From Woeseiaceae bacterium (GTDB taxonomy: Bacteria > Pseudomonadota > Gammaproteobacteria > Steroidobacterales > Woeseiaceae): a stretch of 64,000 bases of DNA. The translations under genes were made by a program, and so were the position numbers. Under the pieces are notes generated by a model. It was not told where the DNA came from. It did no database searches and worked only from the letters and a program-made list of their open reading frames with translations. The DNA lies in assembly GCA_965232455.1 (NCBI GenBank), contig OZ246981.1:3963911-4027910 (forward strand). Reading direction: 5' to 3'. Within the stretch, counting starts at the first letter, position 1. Each line of letters opens with the position of its first letter. Positions 22,572 through 37,648 of this stretch are shown here, piece after piece.

Positions 22572-22858
22572 TTACGAATGGAACGAACACAAGCCCCCTA
22601 CCGTTCGTACGCCGTATGTCCGCGGCCCTTGCCGCCACCCGCAGGACCGATCGCCGAATGATAGCACCGTGACGCGGACGGACGGCAAACAGGTCGGCGC
22701 AAACCTCTCGAACGACCTATGTTCTGTTAAATTTCGCTTGATAGCTGCCCGTTGCTGTCATAGTTTGGCTGTAGTGACAAAGGCAAACCCGTCGAAAGAC
22801 GGGGACGCAAAACCACCGGTCTAAGGACGTTCTTCGTCTACGACAGCGGAGTCGCCGG

Positions 22859-24073
22859 ATGAACCTAGCGGACACAGGGTTGCGCAAACAACCGTTTCGT
22901 ACCCATGGCAAGCCACTGGTGCTTGTGCCGTATGCCGCACAGAGAAACGCCGCCCGGTTTCTCGACGATACCTGCGTCAACAAACACGGCCTGGGACTAT
23001 TTCACGGCCCGCCCCTCTCGGGAAAAACGACGATCGTGCAGCAATTCGCAAGTTCGCTGCCGCGCGACCACGCAGTTGCCGTCGTCGATGGAGCGCGCAC
23101 GGATCCGGACAAGCTACTGAAGCAGATTCTGAGCCAGTTCGGTTACGACCAGGGCGTCAATACGGCCAGTGAACGTTTCAACATGATCCGGGTGGTCGCC
23201 TTGCAGCAGGCCGCAACCGGCCGGCCGCCGGTGCTCGTCATCGAGAACGTCCACAAGATGACGCCGATACTGCTGGAGATGCTTTGCGAGCTGGCCGAGA
23301 TGTCGGTCGATAGAACCAGCGCACTCAGGATCATTCTTGTGAGTGATCATCCGATGCTGCCCATTGTGGAAGCGCCGGCGATGCAATCGATCGAGAACCG
23401 CCTGACCGGCAAGTTCCTCTTGAAGCCGTTGACGCGGACCGAGACGGCTATTTACGCGCACAAGAAACTCAAGAGCGGCGGCTGTTACAACCCGAGGGCC
23501 GTGATGCCGCCGGCGGTGTGCAATCGCTTGCATTCGGCGTCGGGCGGCTGGCCCGGCGTTATCGACCGGCTGGCAATGATGGCGCTGGCGAAAGCCGAAC
23601 ACGTTCCCTTGCTGGTCGAACACATCCCGAAAAGGCTCCAGAAAGACAAGAAGCCACCCAACGTCGTCACCCCCCCACCGCAGCTCATCCTGACCTACAA
23701 GCACAAGATGCTGGGAAAGATCAGTCTCGACAGGCCGCGCTATTTGATCGGCCGAAACGCGCATTGCGAAATCGAGATCGTCCACGAATGGATCAGCCGG
23801 CAACACGCCATCATCGTCCGCAACAAGAAGTCCACCGTGATCGTGGACCTGAAGAGTCGCAACGGGACGTACGTTAATGACCAACGCGTCAAGAGCCACG
23901 TCCTCATCAACAACGACATCGTTTCCCTGGGCGATCATCGCCTCAAATTCGTCGACCCGTCGGCCACACACCGGACCAGCCTGCGCGGCGCCGGATGGGA
24001 CGCCACCACGCTGACCCAATCTATCCGGGATTCTCGCAAGGTGTTGATCAGGAAGTTGAGGAGGACGAGTTGA
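22859..24073 (+). CDS. AAA ATPase (ExeA/GspA-like) with C-terminal FHA domain
   Basis: Walker A GPPLSGKTT, then an ExeA-like AAA region. The C-terminal region has an FHA-like beta-sandwich pattern (RYLIGRN...NGTYVN). Confidence 0.55.
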   Translation: MNLADTGLRKQPFRTHGKPLVLVPYAAQRNAARFLDDTCVNKHGLGLFHGPPLSGKTTIVQQFASSLPRDHAVAVVDGARTDPDKLLKQILSQFGYDQGVNTASERFNMIRVVALQQAATGRPPVLVIENVHKMTPILLEMLCELAEMSVDRTSALRIILVSDHPMLPIVEAPAMQSIENRLTGKFLLKPLTRTETAIYAHKKLKSGGCYNPRAVMPPAVCNRLHSASGGWPGVIDRLAMMALAKAEHVPLLVEHIPKRLQKDKKPPNVVTPPPQLILTYKHKMLGKISLDRPRYLIGRNAHCEIEIVHEWISRQHAIIVRNKKSTVIVDLKSRNGTYVNDQRVKSHVLINNDIVSLGDHRLKFVDPSATHRTSLRGAGWDATTLTQSIRDSRKVLIRKLRRTS

Positions 24074-26366: not shown

Positions 26367-26525
26367 CGCCAGCAAAGATGTTTCAATGGAGCGGCTATTA
26401 CCGGCGAAATAGCCCGGCTGTAAACCGGGTGCCTCTTGGCTGTGCGGGTTCACCAAACGCGCCAGCGTTTAGGACGCGCGAAGCGCGCCCCGCAGGGGTG
26501 AGAATCGGCGCCAGACGATTCTAAT
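26367..26525 (+). tRNA. tRNA-Tyr(GTA) interrupted by a 76-nt structured module in the T-loop
   Basis: Acceptor GGAGCGG/CTGCTCC, discriminator A and CCA. Anticodon arm CCCGG-CTGTAAA-CCGGG and a long variable arm. After GGTTCA the T-loop is split by AAACGCGCCAGCG...GATTCTAATC. Confidence 0.5.
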
Positions 26526-26603
26526 CAACTCCTACCTGCTCCACCACCCAGATGAGTCGTCCAGGCGACGACGGCGGACTGTTAATCCGCGCTGAGCGAG
26601 GTT
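26526..26603 (+). tRNA. tRNA-Asn(GTT)
   Basis: Acceptor CCCAGAT/ATCTGGG, anticodon arm GCGGA-CTGTTAA-TCCGC, T-arm CGAGG-TTCGAGT-CCTCG, encoded CCA. Directly abuts the previous tRNA. Confidence 0.7.
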
Positions 26604-26604
26604 C

Positions 26605-26678
26605 GAGTCCTCGATCTGGGGCCAAGGCTCTGTGGTGAAATGGGATCACATGCCCCTGTCACGGGCAATTCCGGGGAT
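26605..26678 (+). tRNA. tRNA-Asp(GTC)
   Basis: Acceptor GGCTCTG/TAGAGCC, D GTGA..TCAC, anticodon arm TGCCC-CTGTCAC-GGGCA, T-loop ATCGAAA, CCA. Confidence 0.75.
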
Positions 26679-26684
26679 CGAAAC

Positions 26685-26755
26685 CCCGTAGAGCCGCCAA
26701 ACAACTGTCCGGGTACGGGGTACAGCCGGTCCTTACAAGACCAGCTTGCTGAGTT
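26685..26755 (+). tRNA. tRNA-Val(TAC)
   Basis: Acceptor TGTCCGG/ACGGACA, anticodon loop CTTACAA, T-arm CTGAG-TTCGAGT-CTCAG, CCA. Confidence 0.55.
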
Positions 26756-26762
26756 CGAGTCT

Positions 26763-26848
26763 CAGACGGACAACCAGGTCTATGCGGGTGTGGCGGAAGC
26801 AGGCAGACGCGCCGGGTTCAGATTCCGGTGTCTCATGACGTGTGGTTT
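26763..26848 (+). tRNA. tRNA-Leu(CAG), class II
   Basis: Acceptor GCGGGTG/CACCCGT with G1:U72. Anticodon arm CCGGG-TTCAGAT-TCCGG, variable-arm hairpin GTC-TCAT-GAC, 86 nt, CCA. Confidence 0.55.
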
Positions 26849-26852
26849 CGAG

Positions 26853-26928
26853 GCCCTCCACCCGTACCAGATTGGGGGGTGCTCAAGGGTAAGCTGGTTT
26901 CCCTTGCAAGGAGACTGTATGCGCGGAG
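26853..26928 (+). tRNA. tRNA-Ala(TGC)
   Basis: Acceptor GGGGGGT/ATCCTCC with the G3:U70 identity pair. Anticodon loop CTTGCAA, T-arm CGCGG-AGCGTTA-CCGCG, CCA. Confidence 0.7.
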
Positions 26929-26934
26929 CGTTAC

Positions 26935-27066
26935 CGCGATCCTCCACCAGATGCTGCGGCCGTCGTTTAAAGGCCAGGACAACGGTTGTTGATTCGCGGC
27001 TTCGCCGCTCACCTTTCACGCGTACTCGCTGACGCTCGTACGCCTGTTGGACGATTATGCCGGGTT
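26935..27066 (+). tRNA. tRNA-like gene with about 55-nt internal insertion (identity unresolved)
   Basis: Acceptor GCGGCCG/TGGCCGT with two G:U pairs, T-arm CCGGG-TTCAAGT-CCCGC, CCA. The 132-nt length implies an intervening segment. Confidence 0.35.
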
Positions 27067-27067
27067 C

Positions 27068-27144
27068 AAGTCCCGCTGGCCGTACCACGCTCCTATCGTC
27101 TAGTCGGACCAGGACACCACTCTTTCAAGGTGGAGACCGGGGAT
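27068..27144 (+). tRNA. tRNA-Glu(TTC)
   Basis: Close match to the canonical tRNA-Glu body (GTCTAG..GGAC, CTTTCAA). T-loop variant ATCGTAG, CCA. Confidence 0.8.
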
Positions 27145-27150
27145 CGTAGC

Positions 27151-27219
27151 CCCGTAGGAGTACCAGACAATGTTGAGGTAGCCGAGGAGGCATTTGGACT
27201 GTGACCCCGACTCAGCGGT
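27151..27219 (+). tRNA. tRNA-His-like (GTG), atypical
   Basis: Anticodon loop CTGTGAC. Ambiguous 3' end, no G-1, one acceptor mismatch. Confidence 0.35.
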
Positions 27220-27220
27220 T

Positions 27221-27290
27221 CGAGTCCGCGCCTCACCCCACGATGCGGAGCTGGGAGTACACGCAGGCTGCAACCCTCCGTTCGACGGTT
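27221..27290 (+). tRNA. tRNA-Cys(GCA)
   Basis: Perfect acceptor GATGCGG/CCGCATC, anticodon loop CTGCAAC, T-arm GACGG-TTCGAGT-CCGTC, CCA, 70 nt. Confidence 0.55.
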
Positions 27291-27292
27291 CG

Positions 27293-27356
27293 AGTCCGTC
27301 CCGCATCTCCAACTCTCTGTAGCGTAATTTGGTGACCCGCCCGCAGGGTGAGCGCA
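27293..27356 (+). other. Stand-alone copy of the structured module flanked by a 7-bp terminal stem
   Basis: TCTCTGT...CCCGCAGGGTGAGCGCAGCGAATC...GCAGAGA. Same core as the T-loop inserts. Confidence 0.3.
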
Positions 27357-27367
27357 GCGAATCACTC

Positions 27368-27443
27368 CTGCCGCAGAGACCGGATAACTGCGCTGTAGCT
27401 CAACGGTCAGAGCATCCGTCTGATACACGGGAGGCAGGTGGTT
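27368..27443 (+). tRNA. tRNA-Ile(GAT)
   Basis: D GCTC-AACGGTCA-GAGC, anticodon arm TCCGT-CTGATAC-ACGGG, T GGTGG-TTCGACT-CCACT, CCA. U1:G72. Confidence 0.75.
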
Positions 27444-27444
27444 C

Positions 27445-27515
27445 GACTCCACTCAGCGCGACCACGCTTCGACTGTTAGTGCAGTCCCGTCGTTGCCATC
27501 GACCGGTGCCGGGTG
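27445..27515 (+). tRNA. tRNA-Gly(GCC)
   Basis: Perfect acceptor GCTTCGA/TCGAAGC, anticodon loop TTGCCAT, T-arm CCGGG-TGCGATT-CCCGG, CCA. Confidence 0.6.
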
Positions 27516-27516
27516 C

Positions 27517-27588
27517 GATTCCCGGTCGAAGCTCCACGCCCGACAAGCATTAACGGTGATGCACCGGCTTTGTAACCCGGAGAACGGG
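27517..27588 (+). tRNA. tRNA, probable Thr(TGT); no encoded CCA
   Basis: Acceptor GCCCGAC/GTTGGGC, T-loop ATCGTTA. The anticodon stem is imperfect. Confidence 0.35.
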
Positions 27589-27597
27589 GATCGTTAC

Positions 27598-27673
27598 CTC
27601 GGTTGGGCACAATACGATCGCGCAGTAGCTCAACGGTCAGAGCGGCACCCTCATAAGGTGCGAGGTGCGGGTT
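27598..27673 (+). tRNA. tRNA-Met(CAT)
   Basis: Anticodon arm GCACC-CTCATAA-GGTGC, T GCGGG-TTCAACT-CCCGC, CCA. C1:U72 mismatch. Confidence 0.75.
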
Positions 27674-27676
27674 CAA

Positions 27677-27819
27677 CTCCCGCCTGCGCTACCAGATACG
27701 GTGACCAACCGGATCGGAGTCTTCCCTGCGAAGGAAGACCGTGCAGGTTGGAACGCAAGCTTCGCTCGCTCACCGCCGCTATGCGGCGGTGTCTGTCGCA
27801 GCGCGTTGTGCTGCTCGGC
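27677..27819 (+). tRNA. tRNA-Arg(GCG) with 72-nt T-loop insert
   Basis: Acceptor ACGGTGA/TCGCCGT, anticodon arm TCTTCC-CTGCGAA-GGAAGA, T-stem GCAGG/CCTGC. The insert contains hairpin CCGCCGC-TAT-GCGGCGG. Confidence 0.5.
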
Positions 27820-27820
27820 T

Positions 27821-27893
27821 GAGTCCTGCTCGCCGTGCCAAACCCTCTCCGGTGGACCCGGTGGCGGCGCTTCGAACGCTGCTTAAGGAAGTT
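27821..27893 (+). tRNA. tRNA-Arg(TCG)
   Basis: Perfect acceptor ACCCTCT/AGAGGGT, anticodon loop CTTCGAA, T GGAAG-TTCGATT-CTTTC, CCA. Confidence 0.6.
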
Positions 27894-28173
27894 CGATTCT
27901 TTCAGAGGGTGCCAGATTCAAGGTGCTTCCTATCGAAGCCGGGCCACCAGACCCGTCGCAGATGCTGGGAGACGTAAGTCCGGGGGTGAAATACCCCTGA
28001 TTACTGAAGGCTGCGCTGTTTGGACAGCAAGCAGTCTTGAACCGCGACCGGCATAGTCGGCCGACAGAAGTACGAGCGTCAGCGAGCACGCCCGAAGGGT
28101 GAGCGGCGCTGCCGCGAATCAAAACTGGGCCGGTGGCAACGCCGATGTAGCTGAGAAGGATTAGCGCCGAGTT
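27894..28173 (+). other. Unresolved tRNA-like/structured block containing another module copy (28060-28125)
   Basis: Multiple hairpins (CCGGGGGTGAAATACCCCTG, TCGGCCGA). Module core CCCGAAGGGTGAGCGGCGCTGCCGCGAATC. No canonical cloverleaf recovered by eye. Confidence 0.3.
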
Positions 28174-28250
28174 GTAGCCGAGGCATCCTGACAATCCTCC
28201 GTAGCTCAAGCGGGCAGAGCACCGGGCTTTTAACCTGTGAGATGTCGGAT
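28174..28250 (+). tRNA. tRNA-Lys(TTT)
   Basis: Acceptor TCCTCCG/CGGGGGA, anticodon loop CTTTTAA, T-arm GTCGG-ATCGTGG-CCGAC, CCA. Confidence 0.7.
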
Positions 28251-28255
28251 CGTGG

Positions 28256-28345
28256 CCGACCGGGGGAACCAGACACGGAAGGTAAACCGGACAGGCGTGC
28301 CGGAGGCGGTTGCTACCCTACCTGATCGCTCACGCGGTTGTGATT
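28256..28345 (+). tRNA. Class II tRNA, probable Ser(GCT)
   Basis: Acceptor GGAAGGT/GCCTTCC, 90 nt, T-loop TTCGAGT, CCA. The anticodon stem is imperfect. Confidence 0.4.
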
Positions 28346-28351
28346 CGAGTT

Positions 28352-28422
28352 CACTGCCTTCCTCCAAACGCCACCTCGTGTGCTGGGCATAGACGAGATT
28401 CCAAACCTTGTCGTGTTGGGTT
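28352..28422 (+). tRNA. tRNA, probable Trp(CCA)
   Basis: Acceptor ACCTCGT/ACGGGGT, loop TTCCAAA, T TTGGG-TTCGATT-CCTGA, CCA. Confidence 0.4.
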
Positions 28423-28428
28423 CGATTC

Positions 28429-28499
28429 CTGAACGGGGTGCCAACCAATCGCGGTGTGTACAGGGTACCGACCGGATTCTGAGTCCGTGAGCGAGAGTT
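28429..28499 (+). tRNA. tRNA-Gln(CTG)
   Basis: Acceptor CGCGGTG/CACCGCT with a C1:U72 mismatch. Anticodon loop TTCTGAG, T GAGAG-TTCGAAT-CTTTC, CCA. Confidence 0.5.
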
Positions 28500-28654
28500 C
28501 GAATCTTTCCACCGCTACCAACCGGATGCGTCGAGATCAGGGATCGGAAGAGGCTTTGACCCTTGGAGATACGGTTCGAGTCCGTACGGCGCTGCCATGC
28601 TCCACTAGCCCAACCGGCGGAAGTGTCGGACTTAAACACCGTCAGGTCTAGGTT
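28500..28654 (+). other. Two tRNA-like units, unresolved
   Basis: Complete T-arms TACGG-TTCGAGT-CCGTA and GTCTA-GGTTCGAT-TAGAC, each followed by ...CCA. No matching 5' acceptor strands were found. Confidence 0.3.
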
Positions 28655-29019
28655 CGATTAGACGATGGCGTACCAGCTCTCGGTTTTTATCAAATTCAAG
28701 GTCATCGACTTCGGTCGGGGCCTCGTTTAGCGGCCTGGCGCTGCTAACCGTCGGCGACGGCGGGAAAGGAATGCAGCACTGCATTTCGCCGAGCCATTGC
28801 GCTCGGTCAATCCAGGCAAGTCCGGCCTCCCGAGTTCTCGATACGTCGGGAATAGCGGCGAAGTGATGCGGATGACTCGCATCGTTAGTCGTGAGGGGCA
28901 ACGGATAGTGCAGGTGTGCGAGCTTCGCAAACAAGTGCGCTTGTGCAGAAATCCGGGGAGTCGGCGTGCAGCCGACGTCCTGGCTTTCCGTCTAGTAGCC
29001 GGCGGGTGAAAGACATTCG

Positions 29020-29046
29020 GCAAGTGGCCGCCTCGCGGCCACTTGC
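29020..29046 (+). promoter_or_regulatory. Perfect 12-bp hairpin (GCAAGTGGCCGC-CTC-GCGGCCACTTGC) just upstream of tRNA-Asp
   Basis: No T-tract. Candidate processing or structural element. Confidence 0.35.
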
Positions 29047-29054
29047 CACCCCCC

Positions 29055-29129
29055 GCTGCGGTAGCTCAATGGCAGAGCGTCGGATTGTCGATCCGGAAGA
29101 TGTCGGTTCAAACCCGATCCGCAGCGCCA
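29055..29129 (+). tRNA. tRNA-Asp(GTC), second copy
   Basis: Perfect acceptor GCTGCGG/CCGCAGC, D GCTC..GAGC, loop TTGTCGA, T GTCGG-TTCAAAC-CCGAT, CCA. Confidence 0.7.
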
Positions 29130-29202
29130 CACTTGCGAGTGTGTGCTACTCGCGAATTTATCGTCGCGAAGCGACCCTTCTCAACCTGTCTTCGGAGGCA
29201 TT

Positions 29203-29430
29203 ATGAATATCAAGGACATCGTGAAAGACAATACCGTTCGATTCGTCCGGTATCGCCAGGGGGTCGCTTACTACGGCGTCAGCGTACCCACCGAAGGCGA
29301 CTACATCTTTCCCGTTCCGCTCGAGGATATTGGGGACGCCACCCTCGAGCTCGAAGACAAAGCGATCCTGTTCATGCGCTACATCCGACGCGCAATCGGA
29401 GAAGGGTCGTTCGTTCCTCTGGCGTCGTAA
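29203..29430 (+). CDS. Small hypothetical protein (75 aa) embedded in the tRNA array
   Basis: GGAGG RBS 6 nt before the ATG. Clean ORF MNIKDIVKDNTVRFVRYRQGVAYYGVSVP... No recognisable similarity. Confidence 0.4.
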   Translation: MNIKDIVKDNTVRFVRYRQGVAYYGVSVPTEGDYIFPVPLEDIGDATLELEDKAILFMRYIRRAIGEGSFVPLAS

Positions 29431-29437
29431 CTTTTGT

Positions 29438-29513
29438 AGACCGGTAGCTCAGGAAGAAGAGCGCGCGACTGATATTCGCGAGGTCGGCTGTGCAACTCAG
29501 CCTCGGTCTACCA
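29438..29513 (+). tRNA. tRNA-Ile(GAT), second copy
   Basis: Acceptor AGACCGG/TCGGTCT, perfect anticodon arm CGCGA-CTGATAT-TCGCG, atypical T-loop TGCAACT, CCA followed by a T-run. Confidence 0.7.
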
Positions 29514-29519
29514 TTTTTT

Positions 29520-29731
29520 CTGGGAGTAGCTCAGGCTGGTCAGAGTACTCGGTTTGGACCCCAATTTGCCCACGTTGCCGAAAGAACGAAACGGATCGGT
29601 GCAAATTGATCTTTAGTGGAATATGCGGCAGTGCGCTTCCACTCGACCCACTAAAGATCAATCCGCATCCACCCTCTACTTTCTTTGGAAGCACTAGGGC
29701 GGATTGGGTTCGAATCCAGCCTTCCAGACCA
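29520..29731 (+). tRNA. tRNA-like gene interrupted by about 140 nt, including a 15-bp inverted repeat and the CTAAAGATCAATCCGCA element
   Basis: Acceptor CTGGGAG/CTTCCAG plus CCA. Canonical 5' D-arm GCTC-AGGCTGGTCA-GAGT. Internal IR ATTGATCTTTAGTGG...CCACTAAAGATCAAT. 3' GGGTTCGAATCC. Confidence 0.35.
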
Positions 29732-29740
29732 AATTCGAAG

Positions 29741-29971
29741 GGAGACTCGCAAGGTCGGCGTGCTTATCCGGTTTGATCCGAGGAGCGCGCAGCGCGACGA
29801 CAGACGCACGCAGTGCGCCCGCAGGGTGAGCGGCGCAGCCGCGAATCCACCCGGTGATGTCCTCACGGGCGTGGGGGTTCAACCGAGGCGCGTAGCGCCG
29901 ACAGACGGATTCGCGAAGCGAATGCCGCCCGAAGGGCGAGCGCAGCGAGTCCATCCCCTCAGTCTCCTCCA
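29741..29971 (+). tRNA. tRNA-like gene with two module insertions
   Basis: Acceptor GGAGACT/AGTCTCC plus CCA, T-stem GGGGG/CCCTC. Module copies at about 29795-29860 and 29882-29950 (cores CCCGCAGGGTGAGCGGCGCAGCCGCGAATCC and CCCGAAGGGCGAGCGCAGCGAGTC). Confidence 0.35.
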
Positions 29972-29980
29972 AAAGACGAT

Positions 29981-30056
29981 GGTGAGCCTAGCTTAACGGC
30001 AAAGCCCCAGGCCGTGACCCTGGTTGATACCGGTTCAAGTCCGGTGGTTCACCCCA
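29981..30056 (+). tRNA. tRNA-His(GTG)
   Basis: Encoded G-1 opposite C73. Acceptor GTGAGCC/GGTTCAC, perfect anticodon arm CCAGG-CCGTGAC-CCTGG, T ACCGG-TTCAAGT-CCGGT, CCA. Confidence 0.75.
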
Positions 30057-30060
30057 AATT

Positions 30061-30184
30061 GGAGAAGTGGCCGAGTGGCTTAAGGCGCTCGTTAGCTAAA
30101 CTAGAGGGGCGCTGTGTTCCACCCAGGTTCGCACCGAGGAGCGTAGCGACGACAGGCCGAAGGCCCATCCTGGCTTCTCCTCCA
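30061..30184 (+). tRNA. Class II (Leu/Ser-type) tRNA with 34-nt insert in the T-loop
   Basis: Perfect acceptor GGAGAAG/CTTCTCC, class II D-arm GCCGAGTGGCTTAAGGC, T-stem CCAGG/CCTGG. T-loop TTCG-[CACCGAGGAGCGTAGCGACGACAGGCCGAAGGCC]-CAT, CCA. Confidence 0.45.
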
Positions 30185-30188
30185 ACAT

Positions 30189-30328
30189 CCGCCTGTAGCT
30201 CAGAAGGAGCAGAGCAGCTTGTTTGACTCGCTTCGTTCACCCTGCGGACGCACTGCGTGCTTCTGTTGGCGCTTTGCGCCTCGGTGCGAACCAGCAGGCC
30301 GGGGGTTCAAGTCCCTCCAGGCGCTCCA
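30189..30328 (+). tRNA. tRNA-like gene with about 65-nt insertion between anticodon region and T-arm
   Basis: D GCTC-AGAAGGAGC-AGAGC, T GGGGG-TTCAAGT-CCCTC, acceptor CCGCCTG/CAGGCGC with a 1:72 mismatch, CCA. Confidence 0.35.
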
Positions 30329-30332
30329 CTTT

Positions 30333-30406
30333 CCGCTCTTGGCATAGTGGCTGTGCACCTGGCTTTTACCCAGGTGACGGGAGTTCGATTCTCTCAGGGC
30401 GGACCA
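30333..30406 (+). tRNA. tRNA-Lys(TTT), second copy
   Basis: Acceptor CCGCTCT/AGGGCGG, perfect anticodon arm CCTGG-CTTTTAC-CCAGG, T GGGAG-TTCGATT-CTCTC, CCA. Confidence 0.7.
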
Positions 30407-30414
30407 CACAACAT

Positions 30415-30487
30415 GCGGGCATAGCTCAACTGGCAGAGCGCGACGGTGCCAATGTCGAGGTTGTGGACTCGGTCTCCACTGCCCGCT
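30415..30487 (+). tRNA. tRNA-Gly(GCC), second copy (no encoded CCA)
   Basis: Perfect acceptor GCGGGCA/TGCCCGC, D GCTC-AACTGGCA-GAGC, loop GTGCCAA, atypical T-loop CTCGGTC. Confidence 0.65.
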
Positions 30488-30629
30488 CCCAGTCCGCCCA
30501 CGGGGTTGCGTTACTCGGCAACGGCCATTGCGGACTGACATTTATTGCGCTAAAGATCAATCCGCATCAACCATTCTTCCACATTCATCATCGAGGGCGG
30601 ATTGGGTTCGATCCCGGCCCTCTCGACCA
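30488..30629 (+). other. tRNA-like unit carrying the second repeat family (CTAAAGATCAATCCGCA...GGGCGGATTGGGTTCGATCCC)
   Basis: 8-bp stem CAATCCGC/GCGGATTG encloses a variable loop. Ends ...GGCCCTCTCGACCA. Confidence 0.3.
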
Positions 30630-30632
30630 TAT

Positions 30633-30709
30633 TGTCCGATAGCTCAGCAGGGCAGAGCACCGCTCTTACAGAGCGGAGGTCGTCGGTTCGATTCCGACTC
30701 GGATTACCA
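30633..30709 (+). tRNA. tRNA-Val(TAC), second copy
   Basis: D GCTC-AGCAGGGC-AGAGC, perfect anticodon arm CCGCT-CTTACAG-AGCGG, T GTCGG-TTCGATT-CCGAC, CCA. 1:72 mismatch. Confidence 0.55.
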
Positions 30710-30710
30710 G

Positions 30711-30818
30711 GGTTGGGCCAGCGCGCGGCGTTCAGCGGTTCGGGTTCTGATCCCGTCTGGCGCACTCACGCTCCCATCGCACGGTGTGTACCGAGCGAAC
30801 CGTTAGCACTCAACCACC
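30711..30818 (+). other. tRNA-like unit, unresolved
   Basis: Acceptor candidate GGTTGGG/CTCAACC. Internal hairpins. Ends CCACCCA. Confidence 0.25.
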
Positions 30819-30820
30819 CA

Positions 30821-30892
30821 GGGAAATTAGCTCAGTGGGTAGAGCATCAGACCTCTAATCTGAAGTCGCAAGTTCGAATCTTGCATTTCCGC
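30821..30892 (+). tRNA. tRNA-Arg(TCT)
   Basis: D GCTC-AGTGGGT-AGAGC, perfect anticodon arm TCAGA-CCTCTAA-TCTGA, T GCAAG-TTCGAAT-CTTGC. No CCA. Confidence 0.6.
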
Positions 30893-30950
30893 AAATGCCC
30901 TGAAACGGCATCTTGGCAAGGCTTAGGCCCGCGGTTCGAGTCCGCTCCCG
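30893..30950 (+). pseudogene. Truncated tRNA (3' portion only) marking the distal end of the main array
   Basis: GGCCCGCGG-TTCGAGT-CCGC followed by an acceptor-like strand. No matching 5' half. Confidence 0.3.
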
Positions 30951-31429
30951 GGTGAGGATATCGCCCTCCCCGTGTCCGCTGTTAGCAAAGACGTTCGACC
31001 GCCCGAAAGGACGCCAGAGCTGTCCGAGCAGCACGACTGTCGCCGATCAGTGATCCGCCGCGTCGGTCCAGCGGGTCGTCCACGTCGTTTCCGCCTGACA
31101 CTTGTGAATGCTTTGGCGATCACGGGAAAAGGTCGACACCGCGTGCACGATTCGCCCGATCGGCCGGCGCCACCGGTCCGCAGCACTCCTGTGACAGCGG
31201 CCACACATATTCATCCGTCCTGGTCGCAAATGGCGAGGACTCTTTTAACCATAGGTAATAGACGATAAAGGAGGTGATCCAAGTGGCTGGTCTCAGTCGA
31301 CTGGCAGAAGTAGAGCGACGCATTCATGCGCGCAGGACCAGTCATCAGGCGACCGGACCAGCGCGAACACCGCGTCCAAAAAAACGCCCGTCTTTTGACG
31401 GAAACATCAACGAAGAAGGAGAACGCACT

Positions 31430-32572
31430 ATGTGGTTCATGCAAAAATTCATCGTGCGCAAGCACGAACGCGGTCTCCTGTTTAAGGACGGAGACTTCAT
31501 CAAGTTCCTGGAAGCAGGAACTTATCGCTACTTTGGCCTGCGCAGCCGCTACGCGGTAGAGCGTTTCGACCTGTCGGTCGCCGCGTTCGAGCACCGCCTG
31601 GCCGACTACCTGGTCGAGGCTGAACGCGCCGAGGTCGATCGTCTGTTTCACGTCGTTGAGACCCATGCCGACGAAGTCGCGCTGGTCTACCTCAACGAAC
31701 GTGCCGCAGCGATTCTCGGCCCGGCGGAGCGCAAGCTCTACTGGAAAGGCGTGGTTAAAGTTCGCATCGAACGCTTCGACCTCAATGAGGGCATCGCGCT
31801 GGATGCACGCCTGACCAAGCGCCTCGTCAACGGCCGCGATGCACAAGTGCTTGCGGTTGCGGGCAAGGCCGTCTACGCCCGCGTCGTTCCGGACGGTCAT
31901 GTTGGCCTGCTGTACGTTGACGGTGAACTCGCCGAAACCCTGGCGGCCGGCCTGCACGCCTACTGGAACGTTGCCCACGCCGTTGGCGTGGAGCTTGTGG
32001 ACCTGCGCGTCAAGGCACTGGAGGTTCAGGGCCAGGAAATCCTGACCAAGGACAAAGTGGCGCTGCGTATCAACGTGACCGCTACCTACCAGTACGTCGA
32101 CGCGGCGAAAGCCGTTCGCGCGGTCAAGGACCCGCTGGATCAGCTGTACAAAGAGATCCAGTTCGGTCTGCGCGCGGCGGTCGGTACCCGCAAGCTGGAC
32201 GCGCTGCTCGAGGATAAAACCGCAATCGACCGCGACATCGCGGATCACCTCGGCAAGCGTTTCGCTGAGATCGGCCTCAGCGTGATCAGCGTAGGCGTGA
32301 AAGACATCATCCTGCCCGGCGACATGAAGGACCTGCTGGGCAAGGTGGTGGAAGCCGAAAAAGCGGCACAAGCGAACGTCATTCGCCGCCGCGAAGAGAC
32401 CAACGCAACCCGATCACTTCTGAACACCGCAAAAGTGATGGAAAGCAACACCGTTGCGCTGCGTCTCAAGGAACTCGAGACCCTGGAGAAGGTTACTGAA
32501 AACGTCGGTAACCTGTCTGTCGTTGGTGGTCTCGACGGACTGCTGAATGGACTGGTGAACATCAAACAGTGA
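31430..32572 (+). CDS. SPFH/band-7 (slipin-like) domain protein
   Basis: GAAGGAGAA RBS before ATG 31430. Band-7 core and C-terminal coiled-coil typical of slipin/HflKC-like proteins. The longer six-frame ORF is trimmed. Confidence 0.65.
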   Translation: MWFMQKFIVRKHERGLLFKDGDFIKFLEAGTYRYFGLRSRYAVERFDLSVAAFEHRLADYLVEAERAEVDRLFHVVETHADEVALVYLNERAAAILGPAERKLYWKGVVKVRIERFDLNEGIALDARLTKRLVNGRDAQVLAVAGKAVYARVVPDGHVGLLYVDGELAETLAAGLHAYWNVAHAVGVELVDLRVKALEVQGQEILTKDKVALRINVTATYQYVDAAKAVRAVKDPLDQLYKEIQFGLRAAVGTRKLDALLEDKTAIDRDIADHLGKRFAEIGLSVISVGVKDIILPGDMKDLLGKVVEAEKAAQANVIRRREETNATRSLLNTAKVMESNTVALRLKELETLEKVTENVGNLSVVGGLDGLLNGLVNIKQ

Positions 32573-32581
32573 TTCGGCACC

Positions 32582-32619
32582 GGGAGGGTGTGCAACGCAC
32601 CCTCCCAACTTTTTCTACA
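32582..32619 (+). terminator. Rho-independent terminator
   Basis: 9-bp stem GGGAGGGTG/CACCCTCCC with a 7-nt loop, followed by AACTTTTT. Confidence 0.6.
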
Positions 32620-32628
32620 CGGCTGTAG

Positions 32629-32768
32629 CTCAGTGGACAGAGCGCGACTATGCGAAGGTCGAGGTCACAGGTTCACAAAACGCGCCAGCGATTTGGACGC
32701 ACATAGTGCGCCCCGAAGGGGCGAGAGTCGCCCATAGGCGATTCGAGTCAATCTTGTCAGCCGTACCA
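32629..32768 (+). tRNA. tRNA-Arg(GCG) with 66-nt module in the T-loop
   Basis: Perfect acceptor ACGGCTG/CAGCCGT, D GCTC-AGTGGACA-GAGC, anticodon arm CGACT-ATGCGAA-GGTCG. T-stem ACAGG/CTTGT with the loop split as TTCA-[66 nt]-AAT, CCA. Confidence 0.5.
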
Positions 32769-32776
32769 AACATTGA

Positions 32777-32903
32777 TCGGCGCTCGTCCAACGGCAGGAT
32801 GCGAGACTTTGAATCTCGAGATCGCGGTTCGCACCGAGGCGCGTAGCGCCGACAGACGCACGAAGTGCGCCCGCAGAGCAAGCGAAGCGAGTCAATCCAC
32901 GGC
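32777..32903 (+). tRNA. tRNA-Gln(TTG) with 56-nt module in the T-loop
   Basis: Acceptor TCGGCGC/GCGCCGG, perfect anticodon arm CGAGA-CTTTGAA-TCTCG. T-loop TTCG-[CACCGAGGCGCGTAGCGCC...GCGAGTC]-AAT, CCA. Confidence 0.5.
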
Positions 32904-33085
32904 GCCGGGCCAAATTCGTCCGCGTTGTTAATCGAGGATCCGATGGACAGCACGGATTTGTCTTTAGTGGTTTACGTGTAAGTGCGTCGGCGCCACTACC
33001 ACGAAAGTCGAAACAACCCCTGGGTCAGTCGTCTGACGGTAAGACGGCGGATTCGAGCGCCAAGGAACGAACTGCTAAAGAAACA

Positions 33086-35278: not shown

Positions 35279-35390
35279 GCGGATCGTGGTAGTGGCTGCG
35301 GTGCAGCGACCAGCAGCGCACTAAAGATCAATCCGCACCGGCCTTGTCCGCATTGTTCGGCAAAATTGGGCGGATTGGGGGCTGCGCACC
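35279..35390 (+). other. Third copy of the CTAAAGATCAATCCGCA...GGGCGGATTGGGG repeat element ending in GCTGCGCACCA
   Basis: 8-bp stem CAATCCGC/GCGGATTG with a different loop. tRNA-like 3' tail. Confidence 0.3.
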
Positions 35391-35635
35391 AAATCAGGGC
35401 ACGTTGGCAAATGGATGCCGCCACCTAAAACGTAGGCCGCAGGTGGTCCGGATAACACCGGTCGTTGTCTAAGAGGTCGGGAGGGTATGGTTGAGGATGC
35501 AGGCGACTGCTCTGCGTAAGGGTTACTCGCTGGCGCGCGTTTTCCAACAACCGATCTGCCGGTAGTAATGCCCCGGTTACAACGGTATGCGGGTTCGATA
35601 CCCGTCGTGTCCACCACAAAACTGCACGATCCACA

Positions 35636-36220
35636 TTGTCACCGCGAGAAATGACGATGAGAATTCTAAAACTGGATGTAGGCGGACGACCGATCGCGTG
35701 GATTACACGCGAGGACGGCGCTTTGCTGTACTGCCGCGAGCAGGTTGCGTGGGAGGCCGGCGTTGAAGAGATCGTTCTTCGTGGTGGCTACTCACAGCGC
35801 ACTGGTCTTCGGTCAGTCCTGCGCGTGAATTCGATCGTCGCTACGACTTCGGTAGACAAAGGTGCAGATGACTGGGCCGGTACTCCGGCCCTGACCAACC
35901 CGCGCCTGTTCCGTCGAGACGACTACATGTGTCTCTACTGCGGCGAGGTGCTGCCACCACGACTACTCACTCGTGACCACGTGGTTCCCGTATTTTCGGG
36001 TGGCCGCGACGATTGGGGGAACGTTGTGACGGCGTGCCGTCCCTGCAATCACAGGAAAGACAACCATGCGCTGGAAACAATCGGAATGCGACTGCTCGCC
36101 GTGCCCTACGCACCGAATCGTGCGGAAGGCCTGATTCTGGAAAACCGCCGCATTCTGGCGGACCAGATGGAGTTTCTGCGATCGCGCGTCGGCTCAGGCA
36201 GCCGGCTGCGTGTACCATGA
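35636..36220 (+). CDS. HNH endonuclease
   Basis: C-terminal HNH motif YCGEVL...DHVVPVFSGGRDDWGNVVTACRPCNHRK. Confidence 0.65.
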   Translation: MSPREMTMRILKLDVGGRPIAWITREDGALLYCREQVAWEAGVEEIVLRGGYSQRTGLRSVLRVNSIVATTSVDKGADDWAGTPALTNPRLFRRDDYMCLYCGEVLPPRLLTRDHVVPVFSGGRDDWGNVVTACRPCNHRKDNHALETIGMRLLAVPYAPNRAEGLILENRRILADQMEFLRSRVGSGSRLRVP

Positions 36221-36238: not shown

Positions 36239-37648
36239 ATGTCATATTTGCACGAAGTACAAAAAGTCTCGGACGCACATTACGTGCTGCCAAAGATCGG
36301 CGACATGCGTACCGAGGTTCACGCGTACCTGTCCGAGACGCTGTTTGCGCAGACCGATGAGGCGCTCTGGCGTCAGGCGGCTCAGGCCGCGGCTTACCCG
36401 GGCATGATTGGCCTGTACCTGATGCCGGATACCCACCTGGGCTACGGGATCCCCGTGGGCGGCGTTGCCGTGACGGAAGACGTCATTATCCAGGCCGGCA
36501 GCGGCTACGACATCTCATGCGGCGTCGTATACCTGCGGGTGCCTGGCCTGACGGCCGCCGACATCGCCGACTGGGACAAGCGCAAGTGCTGGATCGATGA
36601 CGTCGAACTCCGCATCGCAACCGGAATCGGTAGCGACCGGCCGAAGCACATGCCGCGCCTGTCGGAGTCGAAGATCGAAGACATCTTTCGCTATGGCGCG
36701 AAGGCGGTCGGCGTGCGCGCGGACGTCTGCGAGCGGCAGTACATCGACGTGGACGACTCGGTGCTGGATACCGAGCGTGTACAGCGTGCCCGCGACAAGG
36801 CCTGCCCGCAGATCGGTTCGGTCGGCGGCGGCAACCATTTCGTCGAGATGCAGGTTGACGTCAACGACGGTTCGGTGTGGGTGATGATTCACTGTGGAAG
36901 CCGTGGTTACGGCTGGCAAACTGCGAACCATTACTTCTACGCCGGCGCGGAACTGCGCGGCCTGGCAAAGAACCGTCGGGAAGAATCGTGGCTGCGCGCC
37001 GACGAGCCTCTGGGGCGGGAGTACTGGGCGCATCACAATTCCGCGGCGAACTATGCGGTCGCAAACCGCCACATAATCGTGCGCGGCGTGCAGAAAGCGC
37101 TGGAAAACGTCTTTAAGGCAACGGGTGAGGTTTTCTACGAAATCTCGCACAACCTGGTGCAGGAAGAGACGCTGGTGCTGCCGGACGGCACGACCAAGAA
37201 AGGATTCGTACACCGCAAGGGCGCGACGCGTGCATTCCCGGCAGGGCATCCCGACCTGGTTGGAACCAAGTGGGAGGGGACGGGACACCCGTGCCTGGTT
37301 CCCGGTTCGATGCTGGACGGCGCCGCCATCCTGTATCCGTTGGAAGGGGCATACCAGTCGGGTTGCTCGGTGAACCACGGTTCGGGCCGTGTCATGGCGC
37401 GCGGTAGGGCGAAGCGTGAATTGGCAGAGATTCACGACGACATCGACGCCGAGATGCGCGACATCACCCGTACGTTGGGCGGTGTGGAGGTTCGAGGAAT
37501 CGTAGGCAACACGGAGCGGACTCCGCTCGACGAGTGTGGTCACGTCTACAAGGACCTCGATGAAGTGCTCTGCGTGCTGGAAGCGGAAGGAATCGCGAAA
37601 ATCGCTCACCGGATGTATCCGGTGGCGAACATCAAGGGCACCGACTGA
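36239..37648 (+). CDS. rtcB: RNA-splicing ligase RtcB (3'-phosphate/5'-hydroxyl RNA ligase)
   Basis: PDTHLGYGIPVGGV, GGGNHFVEMQ and the C-terminal HNH/GSGR-type His-rich motifs characteristic of RtcB. 469 aa. Confidence 0.85.
   Translation: MSYLHEVQKVSDAHYVLPKIGDMRTEVHAYLSETLFAQTDEALWRQAAQAAAYPGMIGLYLMPDTHLGYGIPVGGVAVTEDVIIQAGSGYDISCGVVYLRVPGLTAADIADWDKRKCWIDDVELRIATGIGSDRPKHMPRLSESKIEDIFRYGAKAVGVRADVCERQYIDVDDSVLDTERVQRARDKACPQIGSVGGGNHFVEMQVDVNDGSVWVMIHCGSRGYGWQTANHYFYAGAELRGLAKNRREESWLRADEPLGREYWAHHNSAANYAVANRHIIVRGVQKALENVFKATGEVFYEISHNLVQEETLVLPDGTTKKGFVHRKGATRAFPAGHPDLVGTKWEGTGHPCLVPGSMLDGAAILYPLEGAYQSGCSVNHGSGRVMARGRAKRELAEIHDDIDAEMRDITRTLGGVEVRGIVGNTERTPLDECGHVYKDLDEVLCVLEAEGIAKIAHRMYPVANIKGTD

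Follow-up and report, generated by a model that had tools for sequence, protein, structure and literature searches.

RtT RNA (Rfam RF00391; rtT/rttR of the Escherichia coli tyrT operon) has been part of the E. coli annotation since the 1980s-90s and, to our knowledge, has no accepted nature or function. Its Rfam consensus is a tyrT-derived (tRNA-Tyr) mini-transfer RNA (mini-tRNA) with a cassette between AAGGUUCGA and AAUCCUUCCCCCACCACCA of the T loop. Here we describe eleven copies of a module of this kind in a 64,000-nucleotide (nt) stretch of DNA from a Woeseiaceae bacterium (GenBank assembly GCA_965232455.1, contig OZ246981.1, positions 3,963,911 to 4,027,910; hereafter, the window), all of them in a 9-kb tRNA array, where six occupy T loops, four occupy anticodon loops and one replaces the middle of a tRNA-Pro. 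Judged by sequence comparison, these modules are relatives of the RtT family. The cassette is a DNA insertion that is polymorphic among close relatives, occupies a defined loop sequence in both orientations and is accompanied by no duplication. Our favoured explanation, to which we assign a probability of about 0.58, is that the modules are copies of a non-autonomous, non-coding, hairpin-rich mobile DNA cassette, one of the RtT family, whose insertion disrupts redundant tRNA genes.

The likeness to RtT concerns the cassette itself (hairpin A, ACAG/ACGG linker, hairpin B, CCCGNAGGG, YGA-GC GNA GC-GA-RTC), its position between TTCGA and ATCC of a tRNA T arm, and its association with tRNA operons. 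The hosts differ. The RtT cassette of Enterobacterales generally sits in a 5'-truncated tRNA copy located 95-140 nt 3' of an intact twin, often within 153-182-bp tandem repeats, whereas the modules of the window occupy accessory-array genes that are, or once were, full-length, have entered anticodon loops as well, and occur in both orientations. The truncated-host arrangement was not found in the window and is seen in a unit following tRNA-Gln in a related island (L127; our labels for loci in other genomes begin with L). A second set of precedents is provided by repetitive extragenic palindromic (REP) sequences, REPINs and IS200/IS605-derived elements, which are likewise short, non-coding and multi-copy, carry strand-specific hairpins, lack terminal inverted repeats and target duplication, insert beside a specific short sequence and vary in presence between close relatives; unlike them, the cassette targets a tRNA loop sequence, its junctions are not always exact, and no cognate HUH/Y1 transposase was found among the window open reading frames (ORFs) scanned. 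Two classes of tRNA introns also invite comparison. Archaeal introns with a bulge-helix-bulge (BHB) motif, processed by EndA and RtcB, share the small size, the T-loop or other positions and the presence of RtcB as a ligase, but the window junctions have no BHB, the host is bacterial (as witnessed by a cyclic di-GMP (c-di-GMP) riboswitch and a TonB receptor), and some copies are antisense. Bacterial group I tRNA introns are similarly sporadic and clean-bordered; they exceed 200 nt, however, and the modules measure 35-75 nt, lack a group I core and are found for the most part (6 of 11) in T loops.

The original prediction of recurring structured modules in the tRNA array was borne out: a profile of the copies produced ten matches across the window, all inside 26447-32898, and an eleventh copy, divergent and reversed, was found through comparison with an orthologue. 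The pattern CCCGMAGGGYGAGCGN{2,12}GCGARTC has four occurrences versus none expected (100 shuffles), and direct-repeat analysis recovered the shared segments as families D5, D8, D13, D16 and D19. The cassette reads, in order, TTCR, hairpin A, a (G)ACAG or GGAC linker, hairpin B, CCCGNAGGG (hairpin C), Y-GA, hairpin D, GA-R-TC and then (A/C)A(T)CC.

The predicted covariation of base pairs was also supported. Among 145 distinct copies (the window plus 140 other loci, among the matches listed, retrieved with a pattern that left Y and R free), the Y...R combination in Y-GA-[hairpin]-GA-R is CG in 70, TA in 70, CA in 3 and TG in 2 cases; since nearly all combinations (140/145) are Watson-Crick, Y and R pair across a tandem G·A/A·G bracket. 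The bracketed hairpin D occurs in 50 sequence variants, its stem being 2-6 bp long, and hairpin B has 36 distinct stems, which average 4.05 Watson-Crick pairs as opposed to 2.15 (maximum 2.40) in shuffles; most of the loops are triloops (GCA, GAA or GTA) with a closing C-G pair. These patterns point clearly to structural selection on the cassette, albeit without the usual RNA signature. Indeed, G·T wobble is scarce (5 of 442 hairpin D pairs), and unique stems contain 4 G·T versus 11 C·A or A·C combinations, small numbers that, with respect to the question of RNA vs. DNA, speak against an enrichment of wobble pairs. The stabilising features (GNA loops and GA brackets) are confined to one strand; GCGAAGC and GCGCAGC are classic, very stable DNA mini-hairpins. 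Hairpins were parsed from anchors, as an alignment of 20 copies (MAFFT with RNAalifold) recovered hairpin C only, the variable hairpins being out of register; minimum-free-energy folds of whole interrupted genes disagreed between copies and were not used as evidence. A hammerhead reading of the GA-bracketed hairpin, considered by inspection only, was dismissed (the core CUGANGA...GAAA does not fit).

Kinship with RtT is indicated by an exact core of 24-30 nt common to the window modules and the E. coli/Enterobacterales RtT units recognised by Rfam, as well as by a profile of six window copies alone, which matches RtT units of Escherichia whittamii and Pantoea (E = 2e-4 to 5e-3). The RF00391 model (gathering threshold 45 bits) gave no match to the window copies at E<=1 (26-36 kb) or E<=10 (32600-32930), and they are therefore treated as divergent RtT relatives rather than members by the Rfam criterion. 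The pattern search also returned 14 loci on viral contigs, several with small tRNA-like units between terminators; two of the loci carry a tRNA-Lys 3' fragment of the form GCAGGTTCGA[cassette]ATCCTGCACGACCCACCA, whose E. coli counterpart, annotated 'RtT sRNA' by PGAP, scores 52 bits against RF00391, and the viral units score 46-48 bits. Novelty had been claimed for the modules as a class not previously described; they are genuine DNA-level intervening sequences in tRNA genes, but their relatives were already on record as RtT. Another family, AaHKsRNA22 (RF02902), aligns over its full length with M7 (module labels as in the table below) and shares four hairpins, the CCCC-RAA-GGGG-CGAG...CGAG core and the GGUCAC/GGUUCAC start, but its score (33.0 bits on 32667-32761) lies below the gathering score of 39.8. 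It looks like another lineage of the same cassette, and a merger with RtT in one clan may be appropriate. The RF02902 consensus opens with GUGCGGUCACAAAACGC, resembling the 5' half of a T arm plus hairpin A. In the literature on phage T-loop introns, AaHKsRNA22, RtT and the core sequence, we found the cassette undescribed beyond the standard rtT statement.

Evidence of insertion comes from comparison with related tRNA islands. L127 is the syntenic orthologue of window 28.7-36.3 kb (83-93% identity), and four more islands, L143, L144, L145 and L146, with 20, 21, 26 and 17 tRNAs, respectively, were identified via the slipin protein; L143, L145 and L146 contain no cassettes, and L144 contains one. 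Nine window insertions have empty orthologous sites among these five islands, relative to which they are clean, 35-75 nt long and located beside TTCG, TTCA or TTTGA in a 7-nt loop. In the reciprocal case, the L144 cassette resides in tRNA-Trp(CCA), and the window tRNA-Trp (28373-28449) is intact. In L127 an intact tRNA-Gln is followed by a truncated Gln-like unit with a module, and a 60-nt deletion in the window fuses both. Target duplication was detected at none of the insertions (specifically M4, M5, M6, M7 and M10), and the combination of terminal inverted repeats with target-site duplication that classically defines miniature inverted-repeat transposable elements is not found. Other hallmarks of mobile elements are observed, namely multiple copies with presence/absence polymorphism at orthologous sites and insertion in either orientation.

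Table 1. Modules in the tRNA array of the window and proteins encoded in or near it (positions refer to the window; carets mark insertion points)
Feature	Position	Strand	Host or location	Detection or support	Orthologous site without the module, and state in window
M1, 75 nt (boundaries +/-2)	26452..26526	+	T loop of tRNA-Tyr(GTA), gene 26388-26545	profile match 26447-26532	empty GTGGG-TTCGACT-CCTAC (L143, L146); window TTC[A...A]ACT
M9, partial reverse copy (hairpins B, C-like, D)	26986..27043	-	anticodon-loop region of tRNA-Glu(TTC) paralogue (~26955-27088)	profile match 27024-26989 minus	intact tRNA-Glu(ttc) in L144, 3651-3726
M2, partial cassette (hairpin C to GAATC)	27337..27363	+	tRNA-Pro(TGG) remnant (~27314-27385)	pattern match 27340-27363	intact tRNA-Pro in L144, 3876-3952
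Divergent reverse module	27750..27821	-	T loop of tRNA-Arg(GCG) copy 1, gene 27698-27842	empty-site comparison with L144	empty GCAGG-TTCAAGT-CCTGC (L144); 72-nt reverse insert in place of dinucleotide CA
M3	28042..28120	+	anticodon loop (CTTGAA^AA) of decayed tRNA-Ser(TGA) paralogue	pattern match 28091-28120	intact tRNA-Ser(tga) in L144, 4511-4600
M4, 72 nt (TCCGAGG...GCGAATCC)	29777..29848	+	anticodon loop of class II tRNA-Ser(TGA), gene 29741-29974	empty-site comparison	empty CGG-TTTGA^AC-CCGG (L127, L143, L145); M4 present in window
M5	29881..29951	+	T loop of the same tRNA-Ser(TGA) as M4, gene 29741-29974	empty-site comparison	empty TTCGATC (L143, L145); M5 present in window
M6, short version (hairpin A plus one hairpin)	30132..30166	+	T loop of tRNA-Ser(GCT), gene 30061-30185	ARAGORN tRNA-Ser(gct) after excision	empty CCAGG-TTCG^AATCC-TGG (L145); M6 present in window
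M10, decayed reverse copy	30220..30286	-	anticodon loop of tRNA-Arg(TCG), gene 30189-30329	L145/L127 comparison	intact tRNA-Arg(tcg), anticodon loop CTTCGAA (L145); reverse M10 in window
M7	32676..32749	+	T loop of tRNA-Arg(GCG) copy 2, gene 32619-32768	76-nt tRNA-Arg(gcg) after excision; RF02902 33 bits	empty in L127 (3618-3694) and L145 (8189-8265); M7 present in window
M8 (hairpin C and one GA bracket degenerate)	32832..32892	+	T loop of tRNA-Gln(TTG), gene 32777-32912	L145/L127 comparison	intact tRNA-Gln in L145; M8 present in window
75-aa protein (phrog_20427)			within/beside array		
Slipin/Band_7 protein	31430-32572		inside array		
HNH endonuclease	35636-36220		array end		
RtcB	36239-37648		array end		

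With the modules placed in this way, several details of the original prediction change. Insertion between TTCR and (A/C)AT of the T loop was proposed for at least seven units and applies to six hosts, but not to the four anticodon-loop copies, three of which (M9, M10 and M3, the first two reversed) had been missed, nor to the copy in the tRNA-Pro. The latter, earlier described as a stand-alone copy with a terminal stem at 27293-27356, is in fact a tRNA-Pro(TGG) orthologue with a partial module, the supposed terminal stem being its acceptor stem; M2 substitutes the anticodon arm through the T loop and leaves the acceptor, D arm and 3' end in place, as seen in alignment with the intact L144 gene. 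The class II unit taken for Leu-like is actually tRNA-Ser(GCT), and the unit starting at 29741 does hold two modules, but it is a tRNA-Ser(TGA) with only M5 in the T loop. Intact cloverleaves were recovered for six hosts: ARAGORN identified tRNA-Tyr(gta), tRNA-Ser(gct), tRNA-Arg(gcg) and tRNA-Gln(ttg) after in-silico excision and an 88-nt tRNA-Ser(tga) after removal of two inserts, a cloverleaf was recovered from the excised tRNA-Arg(TCG) unit, and excision of M7 restored the canonical T loop TTCAAAT. The claim does not extend to every unit, as the Tyr and Gln T stems have a C·A mismatch compared with their orthologues, the M3 host, which yielded no cloverleaf after excision, is decayed, and a tRNA-Phe is truncated. 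Both Arg-GCG copies carry modules as claimed, but that in the first is reversed, and this gene was not recovered by ARAGORN after simple excision. The M9 host adjoins an intact tRNA-Glu (27089-27165). Partial copies include M2, M6 and M9; M10 is decayed in the window yet matches the consensus in L127, and M5 has an L127 counterpart without the 20-nt hairpin B. M7 is only 79% identical to M1 and nearer to copies from other Woeseiaceae bins, and its donor therefore lies outside the window.

On the cassette-sense strand every site is a 7-nt hairpin loop containing TTCG, TTCA, TTTGA or CTTGAA followed by A(A/T/C)CC. Among these sites are the three kinds of anticodon loops that were hit, i.e., Ser-UGA (twice, M3 and M4), Arg-UCG and Glu-UUC: the Arg-UCG loop of L127 reads GTTCGAA, and the M10 site on the module strand is GCTGG-TTCG[module]AAC-CCAGC, while the Glu-UUC anticodon loop has TTGAA on the opposite strand. 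As counted, four of the eleven copies are antisense to the host tRNA, with coordinates listed for three (minus strand in Table 1), and both orientations relative to the host gene are seen in L127 as well as in the window. Within the window the copies are restricted to the array, which is also where such targets are located. With T-loop-like sites on the cassette strand and both orientations in use, recognition of DNA sequence or shape is the simplest interpretation, as opposed to an RNA-level event in the transcript.

The favoured explanation may be put as follows. A cassette with the layout TTCR - hairpin A - (G)ACAG - hairpin B - CCCGNAGGG - Y-GA-[hairpin D]-GA-R-TC inserts at TTCGAA-like 7-nt loops, chiefly T loops (GG-TTCGA^ATCC) and also the anticodon loops of tRNA-Ser(UGA), opposite-strand tRNA-Arg(UCG) and tRNA-Glu(UUC). 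It would move as DNA, its GNA-triloop and tandem-GA hairpins probably folding in a single-stranded intermediate, and the agent could be a trans-acting HUH-type single-strand transposase (of the REP/IS200-IS605 kind) or, alternatively, microhomology-guided template switching or gene conversion between T arms. In view of the substitutions at junctions and of the replacement by M2 at microhomologies CCCG and ACTCC, the template-switch/conversion route is favoured for some events. The insert would stay in the transcript, the host tRNA being inactivated or becoming an RtT-like tRNA-shaped RNA, so that copies would survive only where tRNAs are redundant: in an accessory, phage-like, visibly decaying island such as this one, or, on chromosomes, in a duplicate beside an intact twin (the classical RtT arrangement). 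Integrase-type integration (attP with a tRNA 3' end), which was considered for the RtT arrangement, cannot account for the clean internal insertions in the window.

The array indeed looks like a redundant island under relaxed selection. It contains at least 11 interrupted units, compared with 26 intact tRNAs and zero cassettes in its relative L145, and signs of decay include the M2-replaced tRNA-Pro, the truncated tRNA-Phe, the decayed Ser-TGA paralogue, the C·A mismatches in the Tyr and Gln T stems, and three insertions of a second, unrelated element (described below). The tRNA-Phe remnant (28134-28190) has kept its 5' half as in L143/L144, followed by a change from GAGTTGAAGCC to GAGTTGTAGCC in the anticodon region and a deletion of the 3' half.

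Several observations weigh against the mobile-cassette explanation. No transposase or other mobilising enzyme was found among the selected window ORFs scanned. Some filled sites differ from the empty ones by one base (position 57/58) or by a few T-stem bases (Tyr, Gln and the L144 Trp), and gene conversion therefore fits them better than precise cut-and-paste. The exons of the tRNA-Ser(TGA) bearing M5 are identical at 84 of 87 positions between the window and L127, matching the best-conserved intact tRNAs, and some intact tRNAs are only 84-87% identical between the two; the body of this gene thus shows no visible decay after the insertion. RNA, too, can form GNA triloops and tandem GA pairs. 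RtT copies on chromosomes nearly all have the orientation of the tRNA, conservation of the core sequence extends across phyla, and the E. coli rtT RNA is reportedly expressed and processed; sense bias, core conservation and rtT expression would also fit an RNA-level function.

The latter possibility can be formulated as a functional RNA domain on a tRNA scaffold, i.e., an RtT-like small RNA in which the tRNA part ensures RNase P/3'-end processing and stability and the cassette binds a protein or RNA partner, with copies spreading mainly by duplication, unequal crossing-over and gene conversion between tRNA genes rather than by transposition. Conservation of the core and of the covarying helix from Enterobacterales to Woeseiaceae-like Gammaproteobacteria and Verrucomicrobia would be expected of such an RNA, as would the strong sense bias beside tRNAs, the restriction of GNA loops and GA brackets to one strand, and the additional 5' hairpin (loop GGAUGAGAAC) kept by Tyr-, Ser- and Gln-derived RtT-type units; moreover, the Gln copy in the window and a 140-nt tRNA-Lys of E. 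coli are accounted for by the loss of DNA between a tRNA and its truncated twin. This account is harder to reconcile with the four window copies counted as antisense to the only evident transcription unit, with the clean de novo insertions M1, M4, M5, M6 and M7, for which no relative has a truncated twin, with the frequency of partial and decayed copies, with the lack of G·U wobble enrichment, or with islands whose 17-26 tRNAs work without any copy. Nor could M1 have been the donor of M7, given their identity of only 79%. We regard a functional RNA domain as unlikely on balance, although it deserves serious attention. Far less credit is due to the notion that the similarity of copies is a by-product of G+C-rich decaying pseudo-tRNAs without any specific element: decayed genes do occur in the array, but the excess of the pattern (4 vs. 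0 expected), the exact 24-nt core in distant genomes, the near-perfect Y-R covariation and the clean insertions relative to orthologues make it almost certainly wrong.

The original prediction favoured introns removed by cut-and-rejoin, with the neighbouring HNH and RtcB genes pointing to the mechanism. Under this interpretation the sense copies are true intervening sequences: an endonuclease, or the cassette itself, would cleave the pre-tRNA at both junctions, and RtcB would join the halves into a tRNA with a normal T loop. Such a process would agree with the canonical T loops (TTCAAAT, TTCGAAT) and full cloverleaves obtained for six hosts upon in-silico excision, with the RtcB gene 0.6 kb from the array and with the well-conserved exons of tRNA-Ser(TGA), and the clean-border presence/absence polymorphism is also shown by mobile introns. 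The signatures of splicing were not detected, though. A BHB motif (two 3-nt bulges with the splice sites, a 4-bp helix between them, and flanking helices) was absent from the six sense copies with junctions shifted by +/-3, the central and flanking helices never occurring together; group I introns and self-cleaving ribozymes (hammerhead, twister, pistol, hatchet, hepatitis delta virus-like) gave no Rfam match at E<=1 or E<=10, and no intron, ribozyme, Y-RNA-like or transfer-messenger RNA (tmRNA) family in the Rfam scans accounts for the modules. Antisense, partial and decayed copies speak against removal as well, as does a variation of junction positions by one base between copies, and a chromosomal cassette-bearing gene nearly always has an intact twin, as expected if it were unable to replace the tRNA. 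The HNH-RtcB pair ends the array not only in the window and L127 but also in the module-free islands L145 and L146 (L143 and L144 are without it), and RtcB homologues of 84-90% identity occur without any array; the pair thus belongs to the phage-like tRNA island, plausibly for tRNA repair, and is not linked to the cassettes. In sum, we consider splicing of the sense copies improbable, and hold an equally dim view of its extension to a bacterial/phage class of RtcB-sealed T-loop and anticodon-loop intervening sequences that would yield working tRNAs and leave RtT RNA as an excised or unprocessed by-product.

Beyond the window, a scan of 185,579 species genomes yielded at least 120 loci, and the taxa among the matches listed comprise Enterobacterales, Pseudomonas/Stutzerimonas, Xanthomonadales, Woeseiaceae, Ectothiorhodospiraceae and Verrucomicrobia. 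Of 148 non-window copies among the matches listed, 42 have a T-loop context and 106 lie outside it; the tRNA 3' end is repeated 142-182 nt upstream in 30 of the 42 T-loop copies, 15 of the 30 with an intact twin tRNA in the locus (twins being Ser-GGA/CGA/TGA, Lys and Gln-CTG). Excision yields a full-length tRNA by ARAGORN in L050 (tRNA-Met, Woeseiaceae), L092 (Gln-CTG), L101 (Ser-CGA) and L127. Of 5426 complete E. coli genomes, 3382 (62%) carry the Lys-type cassette, each at 1-5 places. In E. coli O158:H23 CFIAFB20140388 (NZ_CP076709.1 889603-889742; L147 654-793), a 140-nt tRNA-Lys annotated by PGAP consists of a complete tRNA-Lys(UUU) whose T loop holds a 64-nt RtT cassette between TTCGA and ATCC; the gene is the final one of the lys/val tRNA operon, ahead of nadA.

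Two further features of these copies were noted. The Tyr-, Ser- and Gln-derived RtT-type units have in common an extra 5' hairpin with the loop (G)GAUGAGAA(C/G) and a stem copying the host T stem, found in distant Gammaproteobacteria (L015 1551-1676; L001, L003, L036, L088, L097, L115, L135), the Lys-type unit being without it. The copies outside T loops (more than 100 intergenic repeats) have the core CCCGNAGGG-YGAGCG..GCGARTC after (T/G)A(A/G)ACAG plus a short hairpin, and occur in Pseudomonas/Stutzerimonas, Xanthomonadales and Verrucomicrobia (e.g., L025, L030, L047, L059, L118, L026, L052; range L023-L142), often within larger composite repeats or with a terminal stem; Rfam has no family for them.

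What this study adds is the occurrence of an RtT-type cassette in full-length genes of an accessory array, in T-loop-like anticodon loops and in either orientation, together with empty-site evidence of its mobility. The comparisons suggest that RtT is a hairpin cassette targeting TTCGAA, the tRNA-gene loop that is the best-conserved short sequence of bacterial genomes. The family is far larger than Rfam shows, with its core in more than 100 unannotated intergenic repeats (Pseudomonas, Xanthomonadales, Verrucomicrobia). If RtT is such a cassette, this would explain the odd 'tRNA fragment plus repeat' units 3' of tRNA operons in many Gammaproteobacteria, warn annotators that 'tRNAs' of 130-230 nt of such kind are probably disrupted genes, and provide a tractable system for the study of loop-specific DNA insertion.

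The array, a plus-strand series of tRNA and tRNA-like genes (19 by ARAGORN and a few more by Rfam), spans 26.4-35.6 kb of the window, and its chromosomal surroundings are Gram-negative (TonB-dependent receptor, AraC regulator, M19 dipeptidase, c-di-GMP riboswitch). The nearest homologues of its RtcB and slipin are found in metagenome bins of Woeseiaceae-like Gammaproteobacteria. The make-up of the island (window 25.5-37.7 kb) is conserved in L143-L146, with a gene for a protein of about 112 aa, the 75-aa phrog_20427 gene, slipin and, in some, HNH and RtcB. Since its chromosomal neighbourhood varies between genomes, this tRNA island is probably mobile or derived from a phage and may serve tRNA repair or replacement; PHROG matches mark it as phage-like, and a DNA similarity search for a phage origin returned generic tRNA matches only. 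A tmRNA match at 35397-35616 was dismissed as weak (11 bits). The riboswitch (c-di-GMP-I-GGC, RF03167, 71.9 bits) is located at 22773-22860, directly 5' of an ORF (22859-24073) encoding AAA ATPase and FHA domains.

Finally, a second, unrelated insertion element occurs in the window three times (29559-29706, 30490-30604 and 35290-35590) and contains CTAAAGATCAATCCGCA...GGGCGGATTGGG and a 14-bp hairpin, TTGATCTTTAGTGG/CCACTAAAGATCAA. At the first of these sites, it substitutes the region from the 3' strand of the anticodon stem through the 5' strand of the T stem of a tRNA-Pro(TGG) whose counterparts in L127 (1038-1115), L143 and L145 are intact. Of the six related islands, that of the window alone contains the motif of this element.

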